Positions 9,310-40,649 of a stretch of 64,000 bases of DNA are shown here, piece after piece. The notes beneath the pieces were generated by a model that had not been told where the DNA came from, did not search any database, and saw only the letters and a list, made by a program, of their open reading frames with translations. Position numbers and translations under genes: made by a program. The stretch lies in assembly GCA_963676835.2 (NCBI GenBank), contig CAXXFF010000001.1, forward strand, positions 672,001 to 736,000, in the 5' to 3' direction. The stretch's first letter is position 1. The number at the start of each line of letters is the position of its first letter. The DNA is from Marispirochaeta sp. GTDB lineage: Bacteria > Spirochaetota > Spirochaetia > JC444 > Marispirochaetaceae.

Positions 9310-12300
9310 TTACAGCCGTGAGTTTATCCGCTGCTGAAGATCCAGCAGTTTCGGGTTGCGGTCATTGTCGCCTTTTTGAATCAGCTGGTCAACAATAAGC
9401 TTTGCCTGAACAAAGTTTCCCTGCTGATAGGATTCCAGGGCCGACTGATACTGCAGCTGATCCGCCGCGGAGAGGATGGTGGCGGCACTGGTATCGACAC
9501 GGATTTCCAGCTGCTGCTTGAGGCTGAGATATTTCGACGGTGGATTAAAGGGGGTATACCGCGCAATAGCCCGCTGAAGTGTCTGCAGTGCTGATGCATA
9601 CTGATCCTGAATTTTATTCTGCCAGATTGAATTGGCCTCTGCATAGAGATTTTCCGCCGCCCGGATGTCCGCAGGATCCGGCTCCCGGACACGCTGTCCG
9701 GTGGCAATTTCCGCTTCGAAGATAAGATCCGCAAGGCCTGGATATGAGGGATTTATCGCCTGCAGCGCCTTGGCAAGGGAGAGGCTTTTCTGATACTCCT
9801 CGCCGTTGAAGGCGGTACGGGCCTGCTGGAACTTTTCTGCAAGGATATTATTACGGGCAGCATTTCCTTCGGTTCTCATCAATTCAATCTTTAAGAGCAG
9901 AATACCCACCTCGAGGTTCTGGGGAAAGGTATTCTGTACAGCCGCCAGCTTCTCTTCAGAGTTGGACAGCAGGCCGTCCACCCCGAAGGTCTGATTATTG
10001 GCTACCCGCTGCTCCGCCGTGAGATAATCCTCCCGGGCAAGGTTGATCAGCTGACTCATTTCCGCATAGAGAGGATCGGTCTTGGCTATATACCAGGCGC
10101 TGGAGGTATTGATGGCCCGGTCGACAAACTCTTTAAGACGTACAATTTCCGGGTTGTCCACACTATCCAGCTGACGGTGATAATCCTCCGCCCGGTCCAG
10201 CATGCGGCTGGCATCTTCAAATGCCTGCTGCCGGATAAGCCGGCGGGCTTCGGCAATTGAGGCTTCCCGCTGGGGCAGGAAGTAGTCCCGCTTAGCCTGG
10301 GCAAGTTCGGAAAGCAGAGACTGAATATCGTACCTGTCGCTGTTGGCAGCGGTTGAATCCGTTCTGCGGTCCAGGAGGTCATCGTACTCACTTTTAAGGG
10401 ACTCCAGAAAGAAATCCCTGGCCTCCCCTACGGTATTTTCTATGGCATTGGGGTTGTTTACATTAAACTGCCTGCTTTCCATCCGCTGCCGGGCTTCGTT
10501 GTAGCGCCGTTCTCCGTCCAGACGGTTCTGCCGGGCCAGTCTTATAAGTTCCGCAGCATCATTGATGCCGAGGGAAGCCCGGTCTATATGGGAACGGAGG
10601 GATCCGGAACGTTGACGGATAGCCGCAAGCCTTGCGGTAACCTGCTCCTGTGCCTGAAGCCATTCCGGCAGATTCCCCATTTCCGCGAGGAGGGATTCAT
10701 TCAGGGAAAGAACCGACCGGGCTTCATCACGGAGGGAGGTGAAAATCTCAGTGGCACGGGTTGGATACCGGGCATTGAAGGTGTCCCCCTGAAAAGAAAT
10801 CGCAGCTCCCCCAAGGGCACTGTTTGCTTCGGCTTCCGCCAGGGCAAACTCGGCCAGTTTACTGTCCAGGGGTTCTTCTGCAATACGGAGGTAGATAAGC
10901 AGAAAGTTTTCGTTACTTGAAGCAAACAGCCCCTCAATCTGGGCAAGCCGTTCATCCTGCTCGGCTGTTGCCAGCATATTTTCCGCCTCAAGCTCCTGAT
11001 CCTCAGGATATTCAATACTGCGTGCGACAATAGTATTACGGATGCGGCTTATCTCAAGCTCCTGGGCATTCAAAGTAAGCCGTGCCCGGGAAATGTCCTC
11101 AATGCTTATGGCCTCATTGGCGGCTACAGCTTCACCCTGGCTCTTCATGCTTTCCCCGAGACGGGCAAGCTCCACAGCCTCGGTACCGAAGGTCTCCATC
11201 AGTTCGGCATACATCTGCATATCCCGGTAGAAGCTGATGTATTCCGGAGCACCCGCTGCATCCGATAGGGCACGGTAATCCGGCAGAGGGCTGCCCTCTT
11301 CCGGGACGGGAGAAATCTGCCCCTGCCAGACAAGAGAAGCCCGGTTCAGTTCCCGGGCAAAATCGCTCATTTTTGCAAATCTTTCCAGAGAGGCGGTATA
11401 TTCTCCCTGACGGAAAAGATCTGCCCCTTCTCCGTAAAGGCCGTAGACACCGTCCGCCAGGGCTGTCAGTACCGCAGATGCGCCGCTGTCCCAGCGGGTA
11501 TCAAGAGCTCCGAGGATACCTTCATCCACCCCGAGTTCTTTCTCCACATTGCTCCTGCCGCGGTTCAGGATGATAAGGTAGGCAAGATGATAGATTTCAT
11601 CCTCTCCCGGTTCTGCATATTCATTGAGAATCAGCAGACGGAGTACTTCAAGGGATCGTACAGTATTCTGAACATCCCAGCGCAGCTGTGAAAGATCCCG
11701 GTAACTCGATTCAAATCCGTTGACCCACTCCCCCAGAGTTTCCACAGTAACTTCTGATGAAAATTCTTTAAGGAATGTTGTTGAAGATTCAAGGGCGGGA
11801 AGATTCTGAAGAAACTTATTTCCCAGCTGGGAAGATCTGGACCGCAGCTGTCCTGCTTCCGCCATGGCTTCGGGCTCATACTGTTTGGTTTGAAATATAT
11901 CCAGAGCAAGATCATAGCCTGAGAGGTAGGTTTCCACCGCCCCTTTATAATTCTTCTGCTCCAGCTGTGTCAGAGCAGCATCCATAAGATTGGCATGGCG
12001 GATCCTGTTGTATACGCTACCGGTTGCTTCCCGCGCCCGCACCAGGCCTTCCCGGGCATCTGCATTGGGATAGGGGTCCATCTGTTCCAGCTCTTTGATG
12101 ATTGTATAGGATTCGGAAAGGCCCGCATCATCCTGCTGCTCCAGGGCATTCTGATAGAGCGCTACCAGCTCCTCAAAGGTGCGGTTGTAGCGGTTCTTTG
12201 CCGCCCGGATTGCATTGATAAGGGACTGGGCCTCATCGAAGCGGTCGGGATAGTCTTTCATAACCTGGGCGGTAAGGCTTATGGCAAGGTTGTAGTTCTG

Positions 12301-12441
12301 CTGTTCATAGGCTGCGCGGGCCTCTGCCAGGGGATCCAGCTCCGCCTGACCGCCCGCCCACAAAGGGCCCAGAGCAAGGGTAAACATCAGGAAGAGGAGA
12401 ATATGCGCTAAATTCGGCCTAAATATCGATCTGACAACCAT
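9310..12441 (-). CDS. Exported alpha-helical/TPR-like protein
   Basis: ~1040-aa ORF, signal-peptide-like N-terminus, TPR-like repeats at both ends; start uncertain (12441 or 12465). Confidence 0.75.
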   Translation of the reverse strand: MVVRSIFRPNLAHILLFLMFTLALGPLWAGGQAELDPLAEARAAYEQQNYNLAISLTAQVMKDYPDRFDEAQSLINAIRAAKNRYNRTFEELVALYQNALEQQDDAGLSESYTIIKELEQMDPYPNADAREGLVRAREATGSVYNRIRHANLMDAALTQLEQKNYKGAVETYLSGYDLALDIFQTKQYEPEAMAEAGQLRSRSSQLGNKFLQNLPALESSTTFLKEFSSEVTVETLGEWVNGFESSYRDLSQLRWDVQNTVRSLEVLRLLILNEYAEPGEDEIYHLAYLIILNRGRSNVEKELGVDEGILGALDTRWDSGASAVLTALADGVYGLYGEGADLFRQGEYTASLERFAKMSDFARELNRASLVWQGQISPVPEEGSPLPDYRALSDAAGAPEYISFYRDMQMYAELMETFGTEAVELARLGESMKSQGEAVAANEAISIEDISRARLTLNAQELEISRIRNTIVARSIEYPEDQELEAENMLATAEQDERLAQIEGLFASSNENFLLIYLRIAEEPLDSKLAEFALAEAEANSALGGAAISFQGDTFNARYPTRATEIFTSLRDEARSVLSLNESLLAEMGNLPEWLQAQEQVTARLAAIRQRSGSLRSHIDRASLGINDAAELIRLARQNRLDGERRYNEARQRMESRQFNVNNPNAIENTVGEARDFFLESLKSEYDDLLDRRTDSTAANSDRYDIQSLLSELAQAKRDYFLPQREASIAEARRLIRQQAFEDASRMLDRAEDYHRQLDSVDNPEIVRLKEFVDRAINTSSAWYIAKTDPLYAEMSQLINLAREDYLTAEQRVANNQTFGVDGLLSNSEEKLAAVQNTFPQNLEVGILLLKIELMRTEGNAARNNILAEKFQQARTAFNGEEYQKSLSLAKALQAINPSYPGLADLIFEAEIATGQRVREPDPADIRAAENLYAEANSIWQNKIQDQYASALQTLQRAIARYTPFNPPSKYLSLKQQLEIRVDTSAATILSAADQLQYQSALESYQQGNFVQAKLIVDQLIQKGDNDRNPKLLDLQQRINSRL

Positions 12442-12613
12442 TTCTTCGCTCAGAATGTACCACATTTATCGGCATTTTTGGGGGTCTTGGTGAGCCGCTT
12501 TCATCTCCGCCGTTTTTTTGAGTACAATATAGCGGGGAAGACTTGAAAAGAGTAGATACGGGGCCGAAAATATAGAATATATCCTGTTCCGGTGGTATAT
12601 TTAGAGCACACTG

Positions 12614-13885
12614 ATGGAAAAGCCTTTCAGCGCCTTTACAGAAAAAAAACTCCTGCTTATTCTGCTTGCGGGCATCCTCTGCTTTGTCCCCTATACAGCC
12701 TCCGCAGAGGGCTTTTTCAGTTCCTACTACGACTTCGCCTCGATCTTTTCAGATCCGAATACGGGATTAACCGCATTTCCCATTCTTACGATTCCCATGG
12801 GAGGACGCTACGAGGCCATGGGTACGGCATTTACCGCCCTGGCGGATGACTTTTCCTACCTCGATGCAAATCCCGCGGCAAGTTCAAGACTGGACAGAAC
12901 CCAGATCGCCCTGGCCCATAATGCCTGGATTGCGGATACCTCCATCGACAGTGCGGTATATACGGTCCGCTACGACAAACTGGGCCTCGGTTTTGCCACC
13001 AAATTTCTCTATGTTCCCTTTACGGAATATGATGACTGGGGGGATTCCCAGTCCAGTATTTACTATTCGGAAACCCTTGCAACGGCAAATATCTCCTATA
13101 ACTTTTTCTCCGATTACTATTTTGAAGGTCTCTCGGTGGGGGCGAATGTAAAAGCTGCATACCGGAATATCCCGGAGGTTATTGAACCTGGACAGTCCGC
13201 CCTGGCTTTTATGGGAGATATCGGACTGCTGACCCGGTTCAATTTTCTTAAAAACTACCATTCCCGGGATAAAAACTTTTCCCTGGGACTGACTGCACGG
13301 AACCTCGGGATAAGTACAGACGGCGAAGCCCTGCCGAGTGAAGCATCCCTGGGAGTGGCCTACAAACCAATACGACCCCTTACGCTTACAACGGACTTCA
13401 ACTATCCCTTCAGCCTGGTACCGGATGTTCCTGCGGAATCCTGGAATATCGCCACCGGAATGGACCTGCAGATAACCGATTTCTTCGCCATGCAGAGCGG
13501 CTTCCATTACAAGGGAGGCAACCCCAGGTTTTCTCTGGGAAGCGAGCTGTTAACGGATACCATGTCGCTGAATGTAAACTACACCATGGGACTTGATACT
13601 CAGGTTTCGGCCCCCCTGGACCGCTTAAGCGTTGTCGCGTCTCTGGATATGGGTGATCGAGGCCGCTTTGAACGGGAAACGATGGCGGAAGAACAGTATA
13701 TTGCAGGACTTGAAGCCTACGCTTCGGGAGATCTCCAGAAGGCCATAGCCCATTGGGAAGCGGCCCTTGAGCTTAACCCCGATTTTACCCCCGCCAGAGA
13801 AAACATGGATACTGCCAAAAAAACCGTTGATCTGCAGCAGGATCTGATTGACATCAATACCCTGCTGGACAGCACTGAAGGCTGA
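12614..13885 (+). CDS. UPF0164 family (FadL/PorV-like) outer-membrane beta-barrel with C-terminal TPR
   Basis: Signal peptide; LTIPMGGRYEAMGTAFTALADD..ANPA..LAHNAWIAD motif; amphipathic beta-strands; TPR (YIAGLEAYASGDLQKAIAHWEAALELNP). Confidence 0.8.
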   Translation: MEKPFSAFTEKKLLLILLAGILCFVPYTASAEGFFSSYYDFASIFSDPNTGLTAFPILTIPMGGRYEAMGTAFTALADDFSYLDANPAASSRLDRTQIALAHNAWIADTSIDSAVYTVRYDKLGLGFATKFLYVPFTEYDDWGDSQSSIYYSETLATANISYNFFSDYYFEGLSVGANVKAAYRNIPEVIEPGQSALAFMGDIGLLTRFNFLKNYHSRDKNFSLGLTARNLGISTDGEALPSEASLGVAYKPIRPLTLTTDFNYPFSLVPDVPAESWNIATGMDLQITDFFAMQSGFHYKGGNPRFSLGSELLTDTMSLNVNYTMGLDTQVSAPLDRLSVVASLDMGDRGRFERETMAEEQYIAGLEAYASGDLQKAIAHWEAALELNPDFTPARENMDTAKKTVDLQQDLIDINTLLDSTEG

Positions 13886-15442: not shown

Positions 15443-16313
15443 CGATAAAGCTTAGAAGTTCATCTTCCTTGAAGAGCTTCGCATAATCCCTGGCAGACAT
15501 CCCCAGAGCATCCTTTATGTGAAGATCCGCCCCGGCCTCTATGAGCAGCTCGGCTATGCGGAAATTCTTCTGCCCCACCGCCAGAATAAGGGCGGTCTGC
15601 CCGTTTTTACTTTTCTGATCTATATTAGCTCCGGCCTTGATAAGCCGAATAACAATGCTTTTCATGCCCTCCGCAGCGGCATCCATAAGAGCCGTATTTC
15701 CCCGGTCATCGGAGACAGCATCAATGGAAGCCCCCCGGGAAAGCAGAAGCTTGACCACCGCCCCGTGTTTTGACCTCACCGCCAGGGAAAGTACCGGAAC
15801 TCCCTGCATATCCCGGGTATCCGGAGAGAGGCCTGCCCGGAGGAAAAGGTTTACAATACGAAGCTCGCCGCTGGTGACAGTCTTTATAAAATCATCCGCC
15901 CGCCGCCCGTGACCTGCCGCCATAAGAGCTTCGATGGCATTCCGTACCACCTCTGCGGCTTTCCACTCGTTATGGTGAACACTCCAGACAAGACGCAGCT
16001 CCTTAACTGTTTTAACCCGGGTAAGATGACTCAGGTTTTCAGGCAGATCCATGCTTCCCGTAAGGACCAGCACTTTACCGCTGCCGAGGCAGTAGCCGCT
16101 GAAGAAATCGAGACACGAGGGGATTTCCCCGGATGCAGATTTACCGGGGACCGCCATAAAATGGGAACACTCTTCAATCCACCGCCCGGCAGAAGCCCGC
16201 CAGTCTAGGGATGTATCGCAGAGCAGGTATTCAAGCCCCTCTTCCGCCAAGAGTTCTCCCAGCTTCCGTCCCTTCTCCAACTGTTGTATGCCGCAAAGTA
16301 TGCCTATCTTCAT
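15408..16313 (-). CDS. Ankyrin repeat protein
   Basis: GVPVLSLAV, GNTALMDAA, GQTALILAV, GMSARDYA repeats. Confidence 0.9.
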   Translation of the reverse strand: MKIGILCGIQQLEKGRKLGELLAEEGLEYLLCDTSLDWRASAGRWIEECSHFMAVPGKSASGEIPSCLDFFSGYCLGSGKVLVLTGSMDLPENLSHLTRVKTVKELRLVWSVHHNEWKAAEVVRNAIEALMAAGHGRRADDFIKTVTSGELRIVNLFLRAGLSPDTRDMQGVPVLSLAVRSKHGAVVKLLLSRGASIDAVSDDRGNTALMDAAAEGMKSIVIRLIKAGANIDQKSKNGQTALILAVGQKNFRIAELLIEAGADLHIKDALGMSARDYAKLFKEDELLSFIDAHSGGESIEA

Positions 16314-19300
16314 ATCCGTTTATATTCCAGTTCAAATAGTTGCATACCTCCCGGCAGGAATCAAGTGTTTTAAGTTCAAGGATTTGCAGATCATCAACCA
16401 CTATCTGATACACACCGAACTCCTCTTCCACCGTGCCGGACACCAGAAAGCCGTAGCCCCGGGCAATGGCGGCATACAGCCTGCGGTATGAGGCGGGAAA
16501 CAGAACTGTTTCAAAAATACTGTTTCTGTCTTCAAAACTTAAAAAACACATATCCTTTTTCGTACGGGTTCGAACCTCCTTGCCGGTTACCAGTACTGCA
16601 GCCAGGGAGACACTTTTTTTGTGATAATCCGGGATATCCCGGGAACTGATCAGACAGGGGGGAAGTTCTTCCGGCGGCGGCATAACCAGGAGTTCCGCCG
16701 GGTGAACCCCCGTAAGAATTCCCAGAGTGCGGGCCTGATCCCGCAGTTTCTCCTCCGGCGGATAGTCCTTGACCGCAGCGGGCACCGGAGGCAGGGCAAA
16801 AAGTTCCGGATGGCGGGAGAAATGGAAAAAATGCCAGAACAGCCCCGGGCGGTGGTCAGCCCCGGCAATGGAGTCGAGACAGCCGGAACGGATAAGCCCC
16901 CGGATATCCGCAAGAGCCGGTTCCAGCCGGGTAAGGAGATCCTGAAAATCCGCAAAGGGCCCTCTGCGGCTGCGTTCCTTCAAGAGGGCGGCAATAAACT
17001 CTCCGGAGACCCCTTTGAGCTGGGAAAAACCGGCCCGCAGCCTGTCGCCCTCTCCGCTCCGTTCCACCGTATAGGCCGACAGGCTGCGGTTTATATCCGG
17101 AGGAAGTACCTCAAATCCTTCCCGGACAACGGCATTGAGGTAGACCTGCCGGGAATAGAAGCCGCCGCCGTTATTAATTACAGAGCAGAAAAACTCCAGG
17201 GGATAACGAACCTTGAGCCAGGCAAGTCGGTAGGAAACCAGGGCGTAGGAGGCGCTGTGAGCCTTGCAGAAGGAGTAGCCCTCGAAGGAGACAATGCCTT
17301 CCCAGATTTCATCCAGGGTTTCTGCGGCAATACCCCGGGACCTTCCCCGGCGGTAGAAATCTTCCCGGAAGGACGGCAGGGAAAAGCGGCGGTCTTTTTT
17401 GGAGAGAACCTTGCGCAGTCCGTCCGCCTCGGCGGCACTGTAACCGCAGACAGCCATCACCACCCGGGAGACATCCTCCTGATAGACCATAATGCCGTAG
17501 CTTTCCCGGAGGACTTCCTCTGCATCGGGGTGCAGGGTACGGTATGAGGCGCCGCGGAGGCGCTCCAGAAACGCGGTAATATAACGGTTGGCCGCAGGCC
17601 GGATAATGGAGCTGGCTATAACCAGGTGGGTGTAATCCCCCCGGTGCATCTTCTTCAGAAGCTGCCGGGTAGCCGGGGATTCAATGTAGAACACCCCCAG
17701 GGTTCTCCCCTCCTCGATCATTTCCCGGGTTCTCTCATCTCCCAGGGGATTAAAGCTCTCCCAGTCCAGGGCCTTTTTTCCCGATGCCCTGCGCAGAGGA
17801 GCCGTAAGCTCCAGGGTATCCCGCAGAACCGCCAGGGAGCGGTTTCCCAGAAGATCGATCTTTACCAGTCCCGCATCTTCGGTCCGTCTTTCTCCCAGGC
17901 GATAAGGGGCCAGCCCAGGGGGGAGGTTGTGATATGGGTATAATCGGTAATGGGACCCGGGGTAATTACAACGCCCCCGGGATGGGTGCCAAGATGACGG
18001 GGCATACCGTAAAGCCGCCCCGCAGCAGAGGAGAGCCAGCCGGGGACCTCGGACTCTCCAAGCCGAAAGGCCTCTGCCAGGGGACCGATATCCGGTTCGG
18101 GCATCCCGTAGGCCCGGGCTGCTTCACGGAAGGCGGAGCGGGAACCGAAGGTAACATGATCGGCCACCATTCCCGCCCGCCCCGGATAGGTATCGAATAC
18201 ATACTGCAGAGTAGTCTCCCTTTCGTCCCAGGGAAAATCCACATCAATATCCGGCGGATCCTTTCGTCCCATATTGAGAAAGCGTTCAAAGAAAAGATCC
18301 CGGGCAAGGGGATCCACATGGGTAATGCCCAGCAGGTAGGAGACGATACTGGCGGCGGAGCTGCCCCGGCCGCAGGTGCGGGGACAGCGGGAAACAATGT
18401 CGTGGACCACGAGAAAGTAGCCGGCAAATCCCTTGCGGCGGATTATATTGAGCTCATAATCAAGCCTCCGGCTGATCTCCTGTGTCTCTCGGCCGAAACG
18501 GCGGCGGATTCCCCGGCGGCAGAGCTCCCGGAGCCGGGCAAACTCCTCCTCTTCCCGAAGCCCCTGAAAGGAGGGAAACACGTAGCTTCCGGAAAAAAGA
18601 GTGCCCGCCCCCTCGTCCGCCAGCAGCCGGGTCTGATAGAGGGCATCGGGAACGGCGGAAAAGAAGGCCTCCATTTCGGCGGGACTTACCCGGCGCCGGA
18701 AATCCGGCGGAAAAGCTGCAGCGGAATCCGAATTTATGGCGCGGTTGCGGTCGACCGCCCGCAGTACCCGGAAAAAGCTGCGGTCATCTTCGCTTTGCCA
18801 GAGTGCAGCATTGAGAGCTATGGGGGGAATACGGTAGCGCCTGGCGGCGGCAAGCATGGAGCGGAAAGGCAGCCCGTAAACCAGTGCGGCCCGCAGCCCC
18901 CGGATGGACCGTTGCAGCAGCTTCGGCAGAAGTTCCGGCCGGAATACCGCAACCCTGAGGCCGTCCCAACCCTCTTCCAGCAGAAGGGCTGCCGGATCGG
19001 CCCCTTCCGCTGCCCGGCGGGTAAGAATGCGGTTAATCCGGGCAAAGCCGTTTGCGTTGAGGGGATAGCAGGTAAACAGAGGCAGCCCCGCCGGATCTTC
19101 CAAAGATGATGATGAGGATGAGGATGACGGCAAAGAAGAGAACTCCACTCCGGCCAGGGGTTTCAGACCGTATCTGGCCGCCGCCCGGTAGAAGGAAGGC
19201 AGCCCATAGAGGTTTTCCCGATCCACCATTCCGACACGGACCGCCCCTTCTCCGGCAGCCCTGCGGCAGATGTCGTCAGGGGAAAAAAGACCGGATAAGA

Positions 19301-19352
19301 GGGAATAATGGCTGCGGCAGTGCACCGGCGGAAGGGGTACGTCATTCTTCAT
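16231..19352 (-). pseudogene. dnaE2: DNA polymerase III alpha-family (DnaE2-like) gene, frameshifted at ~17882 (pseudogene or sequence error)
   Basis: PHP-like HCRSHYSLL, GRGSSAAS, PPDIDVDF, HPGGVVI in ORF 17862-19352; EDAGLVKIDLLG, YQED, GYSFCKAHSASYA and OB-fold in the other frame; about 1040 aa if one base is restored. Confidence 0.85.
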
Positions 19353-31357: not shown

Positions 31358-32281
31358 CTACCAGCCGTTTTCAGCGGCAATTTTGTAAAGTTCGTCCAGA
31401 AGTTTTATATCGTATCCGAAATATTTAAAATTTCTGCGGGCCGTGTTTATCCAGCTTTTATCCTGGGTATCGGCTCCACGGTCAATCTTCATATTGCCCC
31501 GGTAGGCTCGGTACATGCTTGCGGTTACAGAAGTCAGCCGGGCGGTAGCTTCAATAAAACGGTTCTCCAGAAAGGAGACGGTGGAATTGACAGCACTGCG
31601 GTGTATCTGCTCCGGCATGGAAGGAAACTTGGAAATAAATGTTTCCACAATCCGTTCCGCCGCTGCAGCAGGTAGAAGACCGGACTGCCTGTCTGCGGTG
31701 GATACTCCGCTGGTCATACTCGCCACCAGAGGACGCATAAGCAGGCAGGTTCTTAAGACATTCACCACTTCTTCCTTACCCATCCGCAGGCGCTGCACCT
31801 TGGTCAGTTCAAAGTGTATATACTCTTTTCTCTGATAAATCTGTTCCATATACTTTTCATCACAGCGGTGAAGAATGGCATTGATGGACCCGATGAGCTC
31901 CCTGCGGGTTTCGAAATTATTCAGCGATGAAAGCAGCAGAGCCTCAAGATCCTGTTTAACCTTCGCCGCAGGCATACTCTGCTGACGGAAGAAGGAGATA
32001 AAGGACATATCAAGTTTATCAGAGACAATCTGCTTTATCAGGGGAACCGCAGTGGTATCGGTGGTTGCCGTCAGGGCCTGTATAAGAATGTTCCAGATAC
32101 GGTCCCAGTCGTAACCGGGGAAAAAGTTGGCTGAAGAGAGGGTGGGAAACAGCTGCCGGGAGTTTGCCGTGAGAAAATGGAGAACCTGCTCCTCTTTCTG
32201 AAAGGGGTTTTGATCCGCCAGGGCGGGATTTGCCAGTAGCCGGGAGATAAAAGCTTCTGCTTTGGCGGCTTCGCTGCTCAT
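31358..32281 (-). CDS. Hypothetical protein
   Basis: 307-aa ORF, co-directional with the downstream genes. Confidence 0.75.
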   Translation of the reverse strand: MSSEAAKAEAFISRLLANPALADQNPFQKEEQVLHFLTANSRQLFPTLSSANFFPGYDWDRIWNILIQALTATTDTTAVPLIKQIVSDKLDMSFISFFRQQSMPAAKVKQDLEALLLSSLNNFETRRELIGSINAILHRCDEKYMEQIYQRKEYIHFELTKVQRLRMGKEEVVNVLRTCLLMRPLVASMTSGVSTADRQSGLLPAAAAERIVETFISKFPSMPEQIHRSAVNSTVSFLENRFIEATARLTSVTASMYRAYRGNMKIDRGADTQDKSWINTARRNFKYFGYDIKLLDELYKIAAENGW

Positions 32282-32363: not shown

Positions 32364-35300
32364 ATGCACCGATCAGATCTTAGCAAGGCTATTTTGATTC
32401 TCCTCTTTTTCACCTTTTTTACCCTCCTTTCGGTAAATACCGCCGCAGAAGATGAGGTACTGCTGCCGGAGGAGGAAGCACCGAAAGCCCTCTTTGAAAC
32501 AAACCTGGGAGATGCCGATGTTGATCTCTATCTTGACGGCACCTGGACCATCGACAGCAGCCTTGGTGCAGTATGGGGCACCCCGGGTCCGGTGAGTGCC
32601 GCCGTCCCCGGATTCAGCTCCGGTTTTCTCTTTGACCAGATTCCGGACCTCACTTTATCTCTCTGGCTTATGGACCGCTACTTCTTTGAAACAAGCCTCA
32701 GTGAAGACTCCGATTACAATACCTACCTCTTTGGTTATGAAGGCAAGGAGGGAGAACTCCTGCAGCATGCCAGGCTGGGGAACACCGCCACCTTTATCGA
32801 GTCCACTCCCCTGATGGAGGTTCCGGATCACCCTGCAGGCGCGCTTGGAGCTTCAGCTACCATGGAAACAGATATCAGCCGTCACGAACTGCTGCTGCGC
32901 TATCAGAAAACTTCAAGGATAAGCAGAACCTACTCGGGTACCTCCGAAATTGAAGAGCTGAATCTCGACCCGGGAGAGTACATACGGGGAAGGTATTTTC
33001 TGCTTCCCGATGAAGACATAGAGAATGCCGTGGTCTACCTGGAGGATAGCGACGGTGAGTATACCGGCGACGACGGCAGCACCTACCGGGAAGCCACGGA
33101 ATACGAAGCATCGGTCTCCGCGGAGGAGGGTTTTGTTGCCCTGACCTCCCGCCCGGCAGGCAGGGTCCTGGTCTATTACACCAAAGACAGCTATTCCGTG
33201 GGAGATTCAAATATCGGGCAGGATGCCCTTGCCGGGCTTAACGGCAGCAGCCAGCCGGACCCTTCCGCGGCGGAAGAAGATTTCTACTGGACCGCAGCGG
33301 ATTATGCAGGCATCGATTTTGATGCGGAGCTTCAGGTAACGGTGAACGGCACCACCTCCCTGCTTCTCTGGGACGGCGGGGCCTGGTCTCCCTTCGAGTT
33401 TCAGGCGGTCTATTCATCCACCGGCGCCTCTTCCGGAAGCACCGTGGAGGTTGAACTGCGGGAATCCGGCGCGGAGGAGGCAACAGCCAGCCTTGAAGGG
33501 GAATACGGATCCGGCAGCCTTACCCTGATCCCCTCCGGATTCAACCGTGCCTCCACCCGCTATCCCCTTGCAGACCTTATTCCCGAAGCCTACGGGCCTG
33601 ACAGGGAGGCCCTGCTGCCGTGGTACCTATGGTACGTGCAGGAATCCGGTACCAGCGTTATCAGTGTTCCCTCTTCGGCTATAGAAGGCACTGTACGGGT
33701 TACGGTAAACGGCAGGGAGGAAAAACGCTTTTCCCGTCTGTCCGACGGAACCCTGGAGTTCTTTTTTACCCTCTATCCCAGCGACAGCGTGGAAGTAAGC
33801 TATGAACTCCCAGACGACACTGCCTCCGGGGCGGACCTGCTCTTTATCTCTTCCAACAGCTTCAATCCTTTTCAGCGTATACCGGATCTTACTTTAAGGG
33901 CGGATCTAGGGCTGCGCTGGAATGTTGATCTTGATCAGGGCTACTCAGAGGAGTACGACCAGAGCCCGGGAAGCCTGCTGGCAACTGCCGGAGCTTCCCT
34001 TGAGAAGGAGACTGCAGGCTTTACCATAAACGGCGGCGTTTCCCTGGGGACCCACGATACCCGGGGCTACCTGCGCCTGGCAGGAATGGACACCGGGGCA
34101 ACCGGTTTTTCCATAAGCGGACACACCCTGTTTCCGGCGGCTCCTTCCGCTTCCTATGCTGCAGCAAGTCTTGGAGAACTGAGCTATACGGATTACTACA
34201 AATACCTGGATACCGGCGGCAGCAGCCTGCAGGAATATACCTGGACACCTCCATCCGATCAGGTCTACGCCTATGGCGACGGTAATCCCGTTGGGCCCTC
34301 GGTCTCCCTGGCTGAGGATGATGACATCGACGGCCGGGTCGCGGTTCTGGACTACAGCCTCGATGATGGCGAATGGGTGGGCGCCCAGATAAATGCCGGG
34401 GATACACTGGACCTTTCCGGAGCCGCGGCAGTCTCCTTCAGATACAGGCTTACCAATACAGGAGGAGGAACCCCGGCACTTATCTTCCGCGCCGGTGCTG
34501 TTTCTGAAGACATTGATGATGACGGTATACTGGACAACGAAAGCGGCGCCTATGATACCGGTTTCGACTACAACATTGCCGGTGACACTCTTTATGTAGG
34601 CGGTGGGGGAAACGGCCCCCGGGGAGAGTACGGAAACGGATCGGAAGAGACCGAGGATGCCGACGGGAACGATCTCTTAAACCCGGAAGTCAGTTCCCGC
34701 ACCGTAACCCTCACCCCGCCCTCGGGAACAAGCGTAGACGGGGTCTGGCACACCGTCTACATTCCCCTCTCCCGGGCGGAGAGAAGCGCACTTTCGTCCA
34801 CCAGGGCAGTTCAGATTCTACTGGAAAACAGCGGAGTAACCTCTTCCGGAAAGCTTCTCATCGGAGAAGTGCAGTTTCAGGGGACCGGATTTGTTCCCGT
34901 CAACACGAACACCTCCGTAAGCGAGCTCTCTGAATATGAGCTTGAAAGCGGTGAAGCACCGACACAGAAGCTCTATGCGGCCTACGATCTGGTGGATACC
35001 CGTTTTAATGACGGCAACGACGACCAGCAGGTGATGCGGATGGAATGGTCCGGAGGAGCTGCAGAAGCGGCAGGGCCCCTGAATGAGGTTCCCCTTTCCG
35101 CCTACGATACCCTGCGCTTCTACTACCGGCTGGAAGCCGCCACAGGAGATACGGAAGACATTCAGCTCGATATTGAAGGGGACGAAGGAACCTTCTCTAT
35201 CAGCCTCAATACAATCAATACTTCAACAGAATGGAGTGAAGTTGAGGTGGACCTTGCAAATAGAACAGTATCTGTCCAGGGTGATACTCCGGCATCCTCT

Positions 35301-37103
35301 ACTGTAAGCGGAAGCCGGGATATCGTCGTCAGACGGGCGCGGATAAGCACGTCCACCAGTGACGGGGTTCTTTTTCTCGACGAACTGCATCTGGCAGACC
35401 CGGTTTCCGCCGCCGATTTCGGCGTGGTAAGCAGTGCCCGCTACTCCCGTCCGGGAGAAATTCTTTCCGCAGGCGGGATACCCCTGCTGGGCAACTTCAC
35501 CTGGGCCGGAAGCTCCCGGATAGCTTCCTCCGGCTTCGGCACCGGCTTCTCCGCTGCCGACGGCCGGGTCTACCGGGTCTATCAGGAAGCGGCTTTTTCA
35601 ACCCTCTGGTCCCGGGCGGACCTGTCTCTCACTGTCAGAGAGGGAGAATCGGGAGTCGAGACAGCCGGCAGCCACAGCCTTACCATCCCGGAAAACGGCC
35701 CGGTCCAGCTGAATGAAAACTACTCCCATGAGCCATCGGGAAGCACCTTCAGCTACAGCAGGGGAGATGCCCTCAGGCTCAGCCTGCCGGGATTTTCAGC
35801 AGCCGCCGGTGCCGCAGTCTCAGGGGATGAAGAGAGCCTGACACAGACATGGACCGCCGCGGCCTCGGCAGACTCCCGCTTCATATCCCTGTCCCCCTCA
35901 CTGAGCTTCAGTAATACCCTCACGGACACGGTACTCGACCCGGAAAACTATGGTGCCGGCTGGATGAATGCAACAGAACTGCTCCTTTACCGGGAAGATT
36001 CCACCCCGGGAAGCAGAAGTGTATATCTGGATCTGCCCCTGGAGAGCACTCCCTCAAATGACCTGAATCTCTCACTGGCCTCATCAGCATCCTCGGCACG
36101 CTACGGCACGGAAGAGAGGCTGCAGCTGGACAGTATGGAAACGCTATTCTCTCTGGAAGGAGTTCTCTTTCCCATGCACCCCTACCAGCTAAAATACCTG
36201 CTCAGCTACAACCGGGATTTTTCCGGAGAATGGAGCACCGCATCTTTCAACCGGGGAGAACATGCCTTTTCCGGGGATATCTCCTCCTGGGCGGAAACTG
36301 CAGGAAGTCAGGGCTATTTTCTTACCTCCCTGCCGGGAAGAGAGATATTTTTCCAGAGTGAAAAAGACCGGTTCACAAGCGGAACCGAAGGCTTTGAAGA
36401 AGCACAGTACTCACCCTCCTTGAACCTGTCATTAAAACGGCCCTTTTCCTCCCGCTTCAGCGACCTGATCATCCCCTCAACTCTCTCCTTCTCCACCGGC
36501 AGGGACTATCTGCGGGAGTACGATACGGTAAGCAGCTCCTTCACCACCGCCACAAGTGCAACCATGACAGCGGTAAACCTCACAGGAACCATGGGTGCCT
36601 ACCCGCTGGTTTCCTGGTACGAATCGGACGAAATAATCACCTCGGTGAATGTAACAACCCTGCAGGAGGAAGAACTCGAAGTCGCCTGGAGTGCAGATAA
36701 CACCCTTCGTCTTTACGGACACGACGACGGTACCCTGAGTTTAAAGAACAGTTTCTCCTGGGATTCCGACTATAACGGCATTACATGGAACAGCAGTTTT
36801 GAGATGCGCTGGTTTCAGAATGTTGAGAATCCCCTGCAGCTGCCCCTCCCGATTAATCTTATCCCCGACGGCGATCAGCGATTACGCCATACCAGTGAAC
36901 TGGAATTCGAACTGAGTCCCGGAGATGAAAGCTGGGAGCGTTCAGGGTCACTCAAACAGTCCGGCGCCCTGCTCTTCGGCGCACAAAGCAGCATAGAAGT
37001 CTATGCCGCCTTCGGGTTTGACAGTACCGGCATGGATGGATACGACAGTTCACTTAACTTTTTTGCCCTTGAAGCGGGAATTACCGGAGTATTTTCCTTC
37101 TGA
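32364..37103 (+). CDS. Very large outer-membrane protein, SprA/Sov (T9SS translocon)-like
   Basis: Signal peptide from ATG 32364; colinear SprA-like motifs (see findings); beta-rich C-terminal half; terminal Phe (GITGVFSF). Confidence 0.65.
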   Translation: MHRSDLSKAILILLFFTFFTLLSVNTAAEDEVLLPEEEAPKALFETNLGDADVDLYLDGTWTIDSSLGAVWGTPGPVSAAVPGFSSGFLFDQIPDLTLSLWLMDRYFFETSLSEDSDYNTYLFGYEGKEGELLQHARLGNTATFIESTPLMEVPDHPAGALGASATMETDISRHELLLRYQKTSRISRTYSGTSEIEELNLDPGEYIRGRYFLLPDEDIENAVVYLEDSDGEYTGDDGSTYREATEYEASVSAEEGFVALTSRPAGRVLVYYTKDSYSVGDSNIGQDALAGLNGSSQPDPSAAEEDFYWTAADYAGIDFDAELQVTVNGTTSLLLWDGGAWSPFEFQAVYSSTGASSGSTVEVELRESGAEEATASLEGEYGSGSLTLIPSGFNRASTRYPLADLIPEAYGPDREALLPWYLWYVQESGTSVISVPSSAIEGTVRVTVNGREEKRFSRLSDGTLEFFFTLYPSDSVEVSYELPDDTASGADLLFISSNSFNPFQRIPDLTLRADLGLRWNVDLDQGYSEEYDQSPGSLLATAGASLEKETAGFTINGGVSLGTHDTRGYLRLAGMDTGATGFSISGHTLFPAAPSASYAAASLGELSYTDYYKYLDTGGSSLQEYTWTPPSDQVYAYGDGNPVGPSVSLAEDDDIDGRVAVLDYSLDDGEWVGAQINAGDTLDLSGAAAVSFRYRLTNTGGGTPALIFRAGAVSEDIDDDGILDNESGAYDTGFDYNIAGDTLYVGGGGNGPRGEYGNGSEETEDADGNDLLNPEVSSRTVTLTPPSGTSVDGVWHTVYIPLSRAERSALSSTRAVQILLENSGVTSSGKLLIGEVQFQGTGFVPVNTNTSVSELSEYELESGEAPTQKLYAAYDLVDTRFNDGNDDQQVMRMEWSGGAAEAAGPLNEVPLSAYDTLRFYYRLEAATGDTEDIQLDIEGDEGTFSISLNTINTSTEWSEVEVDLANRTVSVQGDTPASSTVSGSRDIVVRRARISTSTSDGVLFLDELHLADPVSAADFGVVSSARYSRPGEILSAGGIPLLGNFTWAGSSRIASSGFGTGFSAADGRVYRVYQEAAFSTLWSRADLSLTVREGESGVETAGSHSLTIPENGPVQLNENYSHEPSGSTFSYSRGDALRLSLPGFSAAAGAAVSGDEESLTQTWTAAASADSRFISLSPSLSFSNTLTDTVLDPENYGAGWMNATELLLYREDSTPGSRSVYLDLPLESTPSNDLNLSLASSASSARYGTEERLQLDSMETLFSLEGVLFPMHPYQLKYLLSYNRDFSGEWSTASFNRGEHAFSGDISSWAETAGSQGYFLTSLPGREIFFQSEKDRFTSGTEGFEEAQYSPSLNLSLKRPFSSRFSDLIIPSTLSFSTGRDYLREYDTVSSSFTTATSATMTAVNLTGTMGAYPLVSWYESDEIITSVNVTTLQEEELEVAWSADNTLRLYGHDDGTLSLKNSFSWDSDYNGITWNSSFEMRWFQNVENPLQLPLPINLIPDGDQRLRHTSELEFELSPGDESWERSGSLKQSGALLFGAQSSIEVYAAFGFDSTGMDGYDSSLNFFALEAGITGVFSF

Positions 37104-37231
37104 TCGGGATCATGTTCCCGGAAGAATCCTCCTTGTATATCGGATTGAGAAATTGTAGTTTAATAAAAGTGGAGTATACTTAATTATATATGGACAGCAG
37201 ATTAAACTGCGGCTGTATAAGGAGAAAGATA

Positions 37232-38548
37232 ATGGGAGAACGATCATTCCGCCTGCTTTTAGCATCAGCTTTGCTCATTATGGCATCTGCCCTGTGGGCC
37301 GAGTCCGACGGTGAAAGCGGTTTCGATTTCGGTCTCGGCATCGATATCGGTGCTGTAGGCTTTCAGGAAAACGGAGAAACCGTAGCCTACCAGAGACTGG
37401 TACTCAAGCCCGATTTCTCCATTGGTAAATTCGGTCTTGGTCTCTGGATTCCCCTGCACTACCGTTTTACCGAAGACGGTACCGATTTCAGGGAGGAAGA
37501 CTGGGAGGTTCAGGACGGCGAGTCGGCCCTTGAAAAATACCTCCCGATTTTCAGCTATATCCGCTACGGTCATAAAGGGGACGACTTTTACACAAAAATC
37601 GGCTCCATAGAAGACGGTACCCTTGGAAACGGTTTTATCATGGGGGGATATGCAAACACCCACTTTCTGCCGGATACCCGCATAATCGGCCTCAGCCTGG
37701 ATCTTGACGGAAATCTGGTTAACTTCCCCTATGTCGGGGTGGAAACCTTTGTGGGCAACCTGGCGGTAATGGATGTAATCGGCGCCAGGGTATACGCCAG
37801 ACCCCTGGCAGATACCAGCCTGCCCCTGCTTCCGGAACTCCAGATAGGCACAACCTTTGCCACCGACCGGGAACCCGATGCCCAGTATGACTTTACCGCC
37901 GGTTCCCCCGATGCGGTGCAGATGTTCGGTTTCGACCTGCGTCAGCCGATTCTGGATAATCCCGCAGTCAGCCTGGCGGCTTTCAGCGATGTGGTCTTTC
38001 AGGATGAGGCCCTGGGAGGAATGATCGGAGCCGGCGGACGCTTTGTTCAGCATATTCTCTACGGCGCCCAGATGCGCTTTCTTGGTGAGGATTTTATTCC
38101 CGTCTACTTCGACGGCCAGTACGACCTCTACCGGGAGGCCAAATACGCCGTCTACAGCGGTGCGGAGACAATTCCAGCCTATGCCGGCTGGTATGCCAGC
38201 CTCGGTTTTGCCTTTTTGCAGGACACGGTTGTTTTTCTTTCAAGCATCGAAGGAAGCTTTGCAGAACCGGAAAACGACCTGGAATATCCCCATATCAATG
38301 CCACCCTCAAAATCGGTGAAGGCCTTCTCCCGGGAATATACTTTGATGCAAGCTACGATAAGCGGGTACTCAAAAGCTGGGAAGACTTTACCACTGCGGA
38401 TAACTCTGTTATCGGGGCCGGTATAAACTATAAAACCGGCAACGCGGTGATCACCCTGGCCTACACCCTGCGCTATGATCCCGATGCCGCAGCCGGTGAT
38501 GATCCCTGGATAACCACAGCCAATCTCTCCACCTCGGTGGCATTCTGA
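37232..38548 (+). CDS. Outer-membrane beta-barrel protein
   Basis: AGGAGA SD, signal peptide, alternating hydrophobic strands, terminal LSTSVAF; paralogous to the next gene. Confidence 0.75.
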   Translation: MGERSFRLLLASALLIMASALWAESDGESGFDFGLGIDIGAVGFQENGETVAYQRLVLKPDFSIGKFGLGLWIPLHYRFTEDGTDFREEDWEVQDGESALEKYLPIFSYIRYGHKGDDFYTKIGSIEDGTLGNGFIMGGYANTHFLPDTRIIGLSLDLDGNLVNFPYVGVETFVGNLAVMDVIGARVYARPLADTSLPLLPELQIGTTFATDREPDAQYDFTAGSPDAVQMFGFDLRQPILDNPAVSLAAFSDVVFQDEALGGMIGAGGRFVQHILYGAQMRFLGEDFIPVYFDGQYDLYREAKYAVYSGAETIPAYAGWYASLGFAFLQDTVVFLSSIEGSFAEPENDLEYPHINATLKIGEGLLPGIYFDASYDKRVLKSWEDFTTADNSVIGAGINYKTGNAVITLAYTLRYDPDAAAGDDPWITTANLSTSVAF

Positions 38549-38570
38549 TTCGGACAATAAGGAGGATAGA

Positions 38571-40649
38571 ATGAAACGCCTGATAACCCTGATACCCTTC
38601 CTCATCCTGCTGGCAGCCGCCGCTTTTGCCCAGGAAACCCTGGAGCCTGTGGCCCTGCTGGAATACTATGACGATGAGTTTGAAATAGAAGTATATGATA
38701 TTGACGGAAATATGGTGGAGGAGCTCTTTTACGGCATGGAGCTTATGCCGGGAGACCGGATAAAAACCCTCTCCAGTTCCGCGGAAATCCGCCTGGATCC
38801 CAATGGTTCCATAGTGAAGCTCTCGGAAAACACCGAGTTTATTATTGAATCACTCCAGAGAGACGAACAGACAGCCAATGAGTTTACCCTCTTCGGCGGA
38901 AAAATTCGCACCGTAGCCGCCAAGATCGGCGTTTTTCAGCGCAACAACTACTCCATTCAGACCCCGTCCGCCGTTGCCGGCGTAAGGGGAACCGATTTCG
39001 GTCTGGAGGTTGTCCCCTCCCTCTCGGATGCCGCCTTCGTATTTGAAGGAGCCATCGAATACACCAGTCTGGCCACGGGCAAGGCTGTTAACCTTGGAGC
39101 CGGTCAGTTTGCCGATGCCCTGGGATCAAGCTTCGAGGCAGTGAATCTGAGCACTGAGCGGCTGGCCACTCTTTATCAGAACCTGCAGTTTACCAACCTT
39201 AATCCCGAGGAGGTTCCCGGCTATGTTGCTCCGGTGGTTAAGGAAGAAAAGAAGGCCCCGGAACCGGTGGAGGAAGCTCCTGCCGTAACTGAAGAGGAGG
39301 CTCCGGCCGAAGATAGCGCGGTAATGAACTTCCTTGCCCAGTACATGGGAATGGAAATCGGTACAGTAACCATCGATGGTGTCACCTATTCCAAACTGAT
39401 TTTGCAGCCCACCTTCAATGTGGGAAAATTCGGCATATCCCTTTACCTGCCGGTAATCTACAATACCAATCTTTTCGATCCCGATGACTGGTACCGGCCT
39501 GAAGATAACTATGAGTGGTCCTTCGGTACCGATCAGAACAGCATTGAAGACGGCACAAAAGACGCCATCCGCGACCTTGTTCTGAAGATCCGCTACATAG
39601 AATACGGCGACAACCGGGACACGGTATTCTTCAAAGTGGGCAACTACGACGATGTCACCATGGGACACGGAATTCTGATGAACCGCTTTGCCAACGATAC
39701 CGACTTTCCCGCAGTGCGCCGGGTTGGAATCAACGGCGGCGTAAACTCAAGCAAATGGACCCTTGAATCAGTAGTAAACGACCTTGCCGAACCGGAGATT
39801 ATGGGAGCCCGTATCGGCTACCGTCCCCTTGGAAGCGTCTTTCCCCTGGGATTCGGCGTCTCCTCCATTATGGATATCAACCCGGATGCGGATAATGCCT
39901 ACGGCGACCCGATACTCCTGAATCCTGCCCTGGATACGGAGTTTCCCCTGGTGGATAACGACAGCCTCTCCATTGTGGCCTATGCGGATATTGCAACCAC
40001 GGTGCCCTATTTCCGTGACAGCTACGGAACAAATGTAACTGCCGGCTGGCAGACGGATTTCTTTTATGATGATACGGCCGGAAGTTTTCTTGAAGGATTC
40101 CGCAATTACGGCTGGAATGCTGGAGTGCTCGGTAATATCTCAATCATGAGCTACAAACTTGAATACCAGTACGGTAATGGCATATTTTCAAACGGTCTGT
40201 ACGGACCAACCTACGAAAGATACAGAAATGAATACGGCTCTTATATTGCCCTAACTACCGAGTACCTTGATTTTATAGAAGATTATGAAACACAGGGAAT
40301 CTACGGTGAAGCGGGATTTGAAATTCCCAATATCCTGCTCATGGAAGCAGGATACCGCATGGCCTGGGATGATGACGGGCTCAACGGGACTGCCGACCTG
40401 TTCCATCTTCAGCTGACTGTTCCGACCATCCCCTTCATCGGCCTGAGTGCAGGACTGGGAATGGACACCGTGGGCTTTGCAGATGATATTATACACCGGA
40501 CCCTTTTTGATGAAGGCACAGCCCTCTACGGCGAACTGGTCTATCCCATTGCACCGACCCTCAAACTTGCGGCGGTGCTTACCAACTTTGTCAACGCCGA
40601 CGGAGATGCGAACTTCGCAGTCTCCATCGAAACCAGGGTGGCCTTTTAG
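38571..40649 (+). CDS. FecR-domain protein fused to an outer-membrane beta-barrel
   Basis: GDRIKT..AEIRLD.NGSIVKLSENT..QTPSAVAGVRGTDF (FecR); Pro/Glu linker; barrel ending ETRVAF. Confidence 0.8.
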   Translation: MKRLITLIPFLILLAAAAFAQETLEPVALLEYYDDEFEIEVYDIDGNMVEELFYGMELMPGDRIKTLSSSAEIRLDPNGSIVKLSENTEFIIESLQRDEQTANEFTLFGGKIRTVAAKIGVFQRNNYSIQTPSAVAGVRGTDFGLEVVPSLSDAAFVFEGAIEYTSLATGKAVNLGAGQFADALGSSFEAVNLSTERLATLYQNLQFTNLNPEEVPGYVAPVVKEEKKAPEPVEEAPAVTEEEAPAEDSAVMNFLAQYMGMEIGTVTIDGVTYSKLILQPTFNVGKFGISLYLPVIYNTNLFDPDDWYRPEDNYEWSFGTDQNSIEDGTKDAIRDLVLKIRYIEYGDNRDTVFFKVGNYDDVTMGHGILMNRFANDTDFPAVRRVGINGGVNSSKWTLESVVNDLAEPEIMGARIGYRPLGSVFPLGFGVSSIMDINPDADNAYGDPILLNPALDTEFPLVDNDSLSIVAYADIATTVPYFRDSYGTNVTAGWQTDFFYDDTAGSFLEGFRNYGWNAGVLGNISIMSYKLEYQYGNGIFSNGLYGPTYERYRNEYGSYIALTTEYLDFIEDYETQGIYGEAGFEIPNILLMEAGYRMAWDDDGLNGTADLFHLQLTVPTIPFIGLSAGLGMDTVGFADDIIHRTLFDEGTALYGELVYPIAPTLKLAAVLTNFVNADGDANFAVSIETRVAF

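Follow-up and report, generated by a model that had tools for sequence, protein, structure and literature searches.

The closest described counterpart of the locus studied here is the system of type IX secretion (T9SS) with its outer-membrane pore SprA/Sov. According to the accessible part of PMC10994853, the N-terminal extension of SprA binds SkpA/SprE, a near-invariant lysine of the C-terminal sorting domain (CTD) bonds to PorV, and release of the carrier in Bacteroidota needs the motor and depends on energy. In the parts of the sources available, T9SS is said to occur in Bacteroidota alone (PMC4793230, PMC10994853), with 60 of 97 Bacteroidetes possessing it and none elsewhere (PMC4793230), or in the FCB superphylum alone (PMC11205867). 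A 2025 paper reports, in its accessible part, that T. denticola lacks T9SS genes and that the export route there is unknown (PMC11833123), and the available portion of PMC11705866 contains no spirochaete term. UPF0164-type barrels of T. pallidum have been described as FadL-like nutrient transporters in PMC8407342, the accessible main text of which contains neither "PorV" nor "type IX", and a Brachyspira barrel of the PorV/PorQ family was likewise interpreted as FadL-like in the part available of 10.1101/2025.01.03.631275. No paper on a SprA homologue in spirochaetes was returned by a literature search outside which most subscription journals lay.

The window, that is, the whole stretch of 64,000 nt analysed here, contains one open reading frame at positions 32364–37103 (plus strand), which encodes a SprA-like protein of 1579 aa with the C-terminus GITGVFSF, the final residue being Phe. 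A TTG further upstream, at 32262, would extend the protein to 1613 aa, but the homologues start at the ATG. The gene was single-copy in the 4.43-Mb, 97%-complete genome, and scanning for promoters and terminators revealed nothing above shuffled sequences (4 versus 6.8; 16 versus 11.2). Residues 1–28 (32364–32447), judged by eye as a basic-hydrophobic-TAA sequence, form a probable Sec signal peptide. The predicted barrel strands 1–7 (residues 53–181; 32520–32906) were assigned from a model, and relatives match TIGR04189 positions ~71–258 in this region. Between strands 7 and 8 lies a first folded insertion (residues 182–488; 32907–33827), which was seen in the model and is present in a compact relative; it is probably an extracellular cap in the modelled structure, with its sidedness taken from strand parity. 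Weak matches to the phage distal-tail families DUF2460/TIGR02217 covered ~60–130 residues of this insertion and leave the protein unexplained. Strands 8–11 (residues 489–563; 33828–34052), predicted from the models, are followed by a second folded insertion (~residues 564–1012; 34053–35399) composed of CBM-like beta-sandwiches with acidic DxDxDG motifs, which resembles CBM11/CBM30 sandwiches in VIA structure comparison (Z 10–12) and is missing from the compact relatives of 1137–1146 aa. The remainder consists of predicted strands 12–36 (35400–37100), ending in Phe, assigned from the model up to residue 1228 and by homology beyond it; all these features are on the plus strand.

The motifs listed in the first-pass annotation of this DNA were all located in the translation, in the order given there: FDQIPDLTL from F90, YEGKEGELLQHARLGN at 125–140, YQK..TYSG..EYIRGRYFLL, IEGTVRVTVNG..VEVSYE, RGYLRLAGMD near 567–576, AGAVSEDIDDDG, TEDADGNDLLN, and WHTVYIPL..LSSTRAVQILL. 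Several of them coincide with invariant or near-invariant columns among 29 homologues, in which Q92, D95, Y125, E131, N140, G442, G450, G568, and G711 were nearly or fully invariant. These 29 proteins, the query included, were collected by a word-based search at E ≤ 3e-35, and five of them carry organism names, Spirochaetales, Spirochaetaceae or Treponema, in agreement with the spirochaete origin proposed earlier. When 301 genomes sampled across the phylum were searched with a profile built on these relatives, 145 were found to carry the family; a profile of the N-terminal half matched 3073 clusters at E ≤ 0.001, and among 10 distant clusters examined, one was named Leptospiraceae and one Hydrogenedentota. 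Judged by the 29 proteins and 3073 clusters at these thresholds, the gene is not a chance reading frame.

Several observations were made on the relatives and their surroundings. Compact SprA-like proteins of 1137–1175 aa, found in genus g2 (L064–L071, L045), lack the second cap insertion and keep all 36 predicted strands. In many genomes of family f2, dinB is directly upstream of the SprA-like gene, and at L049:7596–13850 (genome G233) a single open frame of 2084 aa spans both genes. Frames of 1900–2110 aa also occur in several relatives, which suggests recurrent in-frame read-through or fusion. A gene for a membrane protein is upstream of dinB in several loci, and its homologue sits elsewhere in the present genome. 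An M23 peptidase gene was observed near the SprA-like gene, mostly just upstream, in 8 of 20 loci of distant families (L035–L038, L040, L041, L052, L054).

The SprA-like protein itself gave no match in Pfam, NCBIfam or PDB sequence searches; it matched neither PF14349 nor TIGR04189 above the 200-bit cut-off, the best relative scoring 145.5 bits, and a search of the genome with TIGR04189 returned no match, this gene included. The direct match to SprA profiles that the first-pass annotation proposed to look for was thus not obtained from Pfam, NCBIfam or TIGR04189. Seven of the 29 close relatives touched TIGR04189 weakly (best E 0.0054). Among 20 fetched homologues, hand-chosen across families, nine matched TIGR04189 in 3–5 stretches with E values of 5e-18 to 1e-42 and scores of 64–146 bits, under the 200-bit cut-off, and these nine also matched the family profile (E 2e-45 to 1e-84); the 11 homologues lacking a TIGR04189 match were mostly the closer ones. 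A further lead, and no more than that, comes from the ESM Atlas, where SprA_N is annotated in 12% of the members of a 0.95 cluster. SprA was never reached by PDB sequence or profile searches with the SprA-like protein, A1, A2, A3, and L037; it was reached through family profiles and folds only, at a sequence identity of 10–13%.

Structure prediction also connected the protein to SprA. Residues 29–1228, modelled with 49 sequences (pLDDT 85.7, pTM 0.73), retrieved the SprA chains 8GL8, 8GL6, 6H3I, and 6H3J as the top Foldseek entries (E 6e-38 to 6e-24, TM 0.42–0.58), the next non-SprA entry having an E of 1e-8 and a TM of 0.07; in VIA, 1002 of the 1200 residues were aligned to SprA 133–1825 (Z 18.6, rmsd 8.0). 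A natural relative of 1137 aa from genome G015 was modelled nearly whole (pLDDT 84.9, pTM 0.57) and aligned to SprA 131–2401 over 922 residues (VIA Z 21.9, rmsd 7.4; Foldseek E 1e-14), compared with a Z of up to 16.7 over fewer than 300 residues for generic porins. In this compact relative, whose model has a pTM of 0.57, cap-like insertions were seen in the predicted barrel and 36 long strands were counted by hand from DSSP; these map in order onto the 1579-aa protein, strand 12 loosely, the full length not being folded in one piece. None of LptD, the fimbrial ushers, and the TonB receptors qualified as the best match, with a TM(query) of 0.09–0.16 and ~250–390 aligned residues versus 0.33–0.58 and 780–1000 residues for the SprA chains. 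The link to SprA is thus indirect and structural, and a remote SprA/Sov homologue is supported by the intermediate sequences, two independent models, and the 36-strand count. The SprA homology claimed by the first-pass annotation was thereby supported: of the checks it had suggested, the strand count gave 36, Foldseek placed SprA chains first, and the search for a better match to LptD or TonB-dependent receptors found none, SprA being far ahead.

A candidate cargo was found outside the window, as a gene for a protein of 4564 aa with a signal peptide (G000:C2:198172–211866, minus strand); it answers the earlier proposal that the genome be searched for CTD-like substrates. TIGR04183 matched the genome four times (E ≤ 1), and one of these matches was located at the very end of this protein (residues 4491–4562), with 22.8 and 23.1 bits, just at the cut-off, whereas a scan of the whole protein reported FlgD_ig and no TIGR04183. 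The protein therefore combines a signal peptide with a C-terminal sorting domain of borderline score. The best PDB sequence matches of the CTD were FlgD proteins, ahead of any solved T9SS CTD, and proteins of OmpA type contain internal repeats with the same Ig fold. Another three proteins with FlgD_ig repeats, 818–851 aa long and with OmpA-type ends, are encoded at G000:C2:758454–760910, C3:577152–579623, and C2:407295–409850, and the one of them that was scanned has an Lsa66-like end. Ten cargo-family genes from other genomes encode proteins of 1329–5739 aa with a hypervariable, repeat-rich body and a conserved end; the mean column identity of the CTD was 62% over 76 sequences, and usually one such gene was present per genome in the class. 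A GTDB scan returned 458 cargo relatives; spirochaete titles were on 75 among the 80 matches listed, and the closest relative among the matches listed was from Ca. Marispirochaeta associata (64%).

Within the class, the distribution of this giant protein followed that of the pore. The 301 genomes searched with the pore profile were also searched with a cargo profile made from the C-terminal 330 residues. In the class, this profile matched all 37 pore-positive genomes (E ≤ 3e-59), 10 of which had been in the cargo query alignment, and none of the 18 negatives; in genus g8, pore and cargo were both found in the same 11 of 16 genomes. Over the phylum, 114 genomes had both, 31 the pore alone, 7 a weak cargo match alone, and 149 neither, and all the pore-only and weak-cargo-only genomes fell outside the class. 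The independent profile TIGR04183 matched 30 of 33 pore-positive versus 4 of 28 negative genomes in a hand-chosen panel, the 28 negatives still being negative with a second pore profile. These counts are given with no p-value, since related genomes are not independent. On a marker tree, the pore/cargo state needed five changes, four of them forced by starred branches, one negative being a long branch. The tree was built from one fast-evolving barrel gene, present in 29 of the 37 positives and 8 of the 18 negatives (the other 10 negatives lacked it), because housekeeping markers adjoined the tree gene in just 5 of 37 loci. Two control barrels broke the pore pattern, one being present in 37/37 positives and 8/18 negatives and the other in 10/37 and 0/18. 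These data bear on an alternative in which the protein, derived from SprA, would serve as a channel for import or lipid handling with the help of its CBM-like caps, the co-occurrence reflecting a shared lifestyle. It would account for the resemblance of the second insertion to CBM11/CBM30 sandwiches (Z 10–12), for the FadL-like interpretation of PorV-like barrels (accessible parts of PMC8407342 and 10.1101/2025.01.03.631275), and for the M23 peptidase genes near the pore gene in 8 of 20 loci, but compact relatives without the CBM-like insertion still keep the cargo, and the exact joint loss inside one genus is not followed by the two other barrels; such a channel is considered quite unlikely, the least probable of the alternatives weighed here.

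A candidate carrier, overlooked in the first-pass annotation as was the giant CTD protein, is encoded in the window at 12614–13885 (plus strand), not adjoining the SprA-like gene. This PorV-like (UPF0164) barrel of 423 aa, with a C-terminal TPR arm, scored 84.6 bits against NF033709 (cut-off 90) and 183 bits against PF03687 and did not match PF19572; three weaker PorV-like genes are located elsewhere in the genome. The complex of the CTD with one of these four candidate carriers, the 423-aa barrel, was modelled with a score of 0.89, the best of three controls scoring 0.00. Among 157 solved complexes, 116 attained the mark for this score, as did 2 of 215 mismatched pairs; the runs showed at least 84% contact agreement and a partner pLDDT of at least 86. 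Since PorV-CTD complexes have been solved (8GL6, 8GL8), the score may echo those complexes and shows likeness rather than binding of this pair. The modelled interface consists of the hatch and loops of the barrel, and the near-invariant Lys94 of the CTD contacts carrier residues 136–137 in the complex model, Phe136 being invariant in 17 sequences; this is reminiscent of the lysine that bonds to PorV in PMC10994853. Genes of the PorV family were detected in 33 of 33 pore-positive and also in 18 of 28 pore-negative genomes, the latter pointing to another role for them or to persistence. Divergent from the PorV-like gene, a protein of 1051 aa with no family match is encoded at 9310–12465 (minus strand); its homologue occupies the same position at 10 of 20 loci, one pore-negative genome included, and it is a candidate periplasmic partner. 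At G000:C1:651529–654558 (minus strand; L241), two weak PorV-family barrels of 386 and 381 aa flank a gene for an acidic, lipoprotein-like protein of 215 aa.

In other lineages, a CTD gene is often located directly before a PorV-like gene (e.g. L197–L199, L201). The 2.9-Mb genome G004 has 53 CTD matches and 30 PorV-family matches, and tandem CTD and PorV-like genes such as those of L201 apparently form one-cargo-one-carrier pairs, to judge from gene order. The giant CTD protein might instead be a static envelope component, a permanent barrel partner serving as plug, cap or scaffold and not as substrate. Usually one cargo-family gene occurs per genome in the class, unlike the many substrates of Bacteroidota, and the CTD is unusually conserved (62% mean column identity over 76 sequences), both as would be expected of such a partner. 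Its signal peptide and its adhesin-like architecture, a hypervariable repeat body with a conserved end in proteins of 1329–5739 aa, argue otherwise, as do the modelling of the CTD onto the PorV-like barrel and the many CTD genes of other lineages (53 in G004), often beside a PorV-like gene. A static role is accordingly regarded as improbable, though slightly less so than the import channel.

Searches for the motor, hub, and sortase of T9SS gave few signals. GldN was not matched in any of 33 pore-positive genomes at E ≤ 0.001, the intended positive control G301 also lacking a match, and GldM yielded nothing over the cut-off in the same number of pore-positive genomes, with one fragment of 23.8 bits, the control G301 being likewise silent. 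For GldL and GldK, matches in five genomes were partial and far below the cut-off in searches with no working positive control; the PorU profile matched with its CTD part alone in five genomes, and PorP was not found in the present genome and gave weak matches in one of five. As regards SprE/PorW, SkpA, PPI, and Plug, the window genes gave generic TPR matches to NF052312 and nothing else. The earlier statement that no PorK/L/M/N-like genes were recognised in the window therefore extends to the genome, in which none was found over the cut-off. Equally diverged motor copies would be missed, since the pore escapes its own profile TIGR04189 and the GldM and GldN controls were silent; whether the GldLM motor is truly absent is judged to be evenly balanced. 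A complete but highly diverged T9SS, with pore, carrier, and CTD as proposed here and GldK/L/M/N beyond the reach of the profiles, is a less likely possibility, which overlaps with the main reading because pore, carrier, and cargo are common to both. It is in keeping with a pore unseen by its own profile in this genome, so that equally diverged partners would be missed, with the lack of a responding positive control for GldM and GldN, and with the energy-dependent release described for Bacteroidota in the accessible part of PMC10994853. Opposed to it are the lack of GldN and GldM matches in 33 genomes, including some whose pores match TIGR04189 strongly, and the partial GldL/GldK matches, far below the cut-off, in five genomes.

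Two co-directional genes follow the SprA-like gene on the plus strand. The first, at 37190–38548, encodes a probable outer-membrane barrel of 452 aa, found in 10 of 37 pore-positive and 0 of 18 negative genomes and adjacent to the pore gene in 6 of the 10; the second, at 38571–40649, encodes a 692-aa protein with a FecR domain joined to a paralogue of the 452-aa barrel. They were rejected as required parts of the system, being present in just 10 of 37 pore-positive genomes. The paralogous barrels (37190–40649) matched Leptospira ImpL63 weakly (NF047543, E 4.5e-6) and were paired in 9 of 55 genomes. Elsewhere in the genome (G000:C1:65244–69500, minus strand; L240), a protein of 1418 aa consists of a PorV-like barrel, at least six FlgD_ig/CHU_C repeats resembling type B CTDs, and an OmpA domain. 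Its barrel part occurs in 45 of the 55 genomes in the class, as a fusion in some and as a free protein in others. This protein could anchor a barrel of the outer membrane to peptidoglycan in the manner of PorP-PorE, but as a part of the system it was set aside because it is also present in 8 of 18 pore-negative genomes. On the minus strand of the window, a DnaE-like gene (PHP/Pol III alpha, recognised by eye; 16231–19352) appears split into two ORFs of 496 aa at 17862–19352 and 16231–17721, possibly by a frameshift.

Taken as a whole, the SprA-like protein probably serves as the pore in a pared-down, T9SS-like export system and would work as SprA does, passing the giant CTD protein to the PorV-like carrier and thence to the surface. 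The SprA-type fold with folded caps, the 36 predicted strands, and the joint presence and absence with the giant protein form its computed basis, while the docking step, sideways exit, display on the surface, and energy supply are drawn by analogy from the SprA mechanism (accessible part of PMC10994853). Of the uncharacterised large-pore export or assembly system suggested by the first-pass annotation, the SprA-type pore is thus supported, and the export function would follow by that analogy. In this scheme, the giant protein would cross the inner membrane by Sec, and its CTD would enter the barrel from the periplasm and bind the hatch and loops of the PorV-like UPF0164 barrel docked at a lateral opening. 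Carrier and cargo would then exit sideways; since no PorU sortase domain was found in the five genomes searched, the cargo probably stays attached to the carrier, acting as an adhesin or a coat at the cell surface. The energy for release is the least certain step. As a guess, with the motor absent, release may draw its energy from the long repeat passenger as it folds outside the cell or, alternatively, may be driven by an unrelated periplasmic link via the TPR arm of the carrier.

These findings point to an undescribed route of protein export in bacteria that are not known to possess one. We tentatively suggest, as a proposition somewhat more doubtful than not, that roughly half of the Spirochaetota possess a T9SS without a motor, in an ancestor-like or reduced form, with a 36-strand SprA-type pore and a UPF0164 carrier, which in this class would be dedicated to one giant surface protein released without a GldLM rotary motor; the 1137-aa form would then be a minimal SprA, and the "FadL-like" barrels of treponemes would act as carriers of CTDs or represent remnants of such carriers. 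With pore, carrier, and cargo now named, the export idea is directly testable. A version without GldLM, if true, would test the claim of motor-dependent carrier release and bear on the evolution of T9SS, and the compact relative, half the size of SprA, is a convenient structural target. The results also offer an alternative reading of UPF0164/FadL-like barrels and bear on how spirochaetes place large proteins on their surface.

Among known systems, SprA of Flavobacterium johnsoniae (6H3I, 6H3J, 8GL6, 8GL8)/Sov comes closest in structure, with a match that runs in order along almost the entire chain. Both proteins have folded cap insertions, SprA with 36 strands (accessible part of PMC10994853) and the SprA-like protein with 36 predicted. 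They differ in that the SprA-like protein has 1579 aa against the 2319 positions of TIGR04189, shares 10–13% identity with SprA, gives no direct profile match, belongs to another phylum, and lacks the long N-terminal extension, the alignment beginning at SprA residue ~131–133; its relatives are as short as 1137 aa, without the second insertion. LptD, fimbrial ushers, and TonB-dependent receptors are also large outer-membrane barrels but rank lower in the fold lists. As in T9SS with type A cargo, there are an Ig-like sandwich at the C-terminus, in which a lysine close to the end is conserved, a PorV-family barrel, and a predicted CTD-barrel complex, whereas the CTD is FlgD_ig-like with a borderline TIGR04183 score, the carrier is a UPF0164 protein with a TPR arm, and there is mostly one cargo. 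Unlike T9SS, none of GldK/L/M/N, PorU, and PorP was found over the cut-off in searches lacking a responsive positive control. The system is not classed as T9SS, since the pore scores below the curated SprA cut-off and the motor and sortase searches of the genome came back negative. The carrier resembles the treponemal FadL-like/UPF0164 barrels TP0548, TP0859, and TP0865 in its PF03687 domain, hatch, and C-terminal helical/TPR extension; those barrels are presented as importers of hydrophobic nutrients in the accessible part of PMC8407342, whereas the family member studied here models as a CTD carrier.
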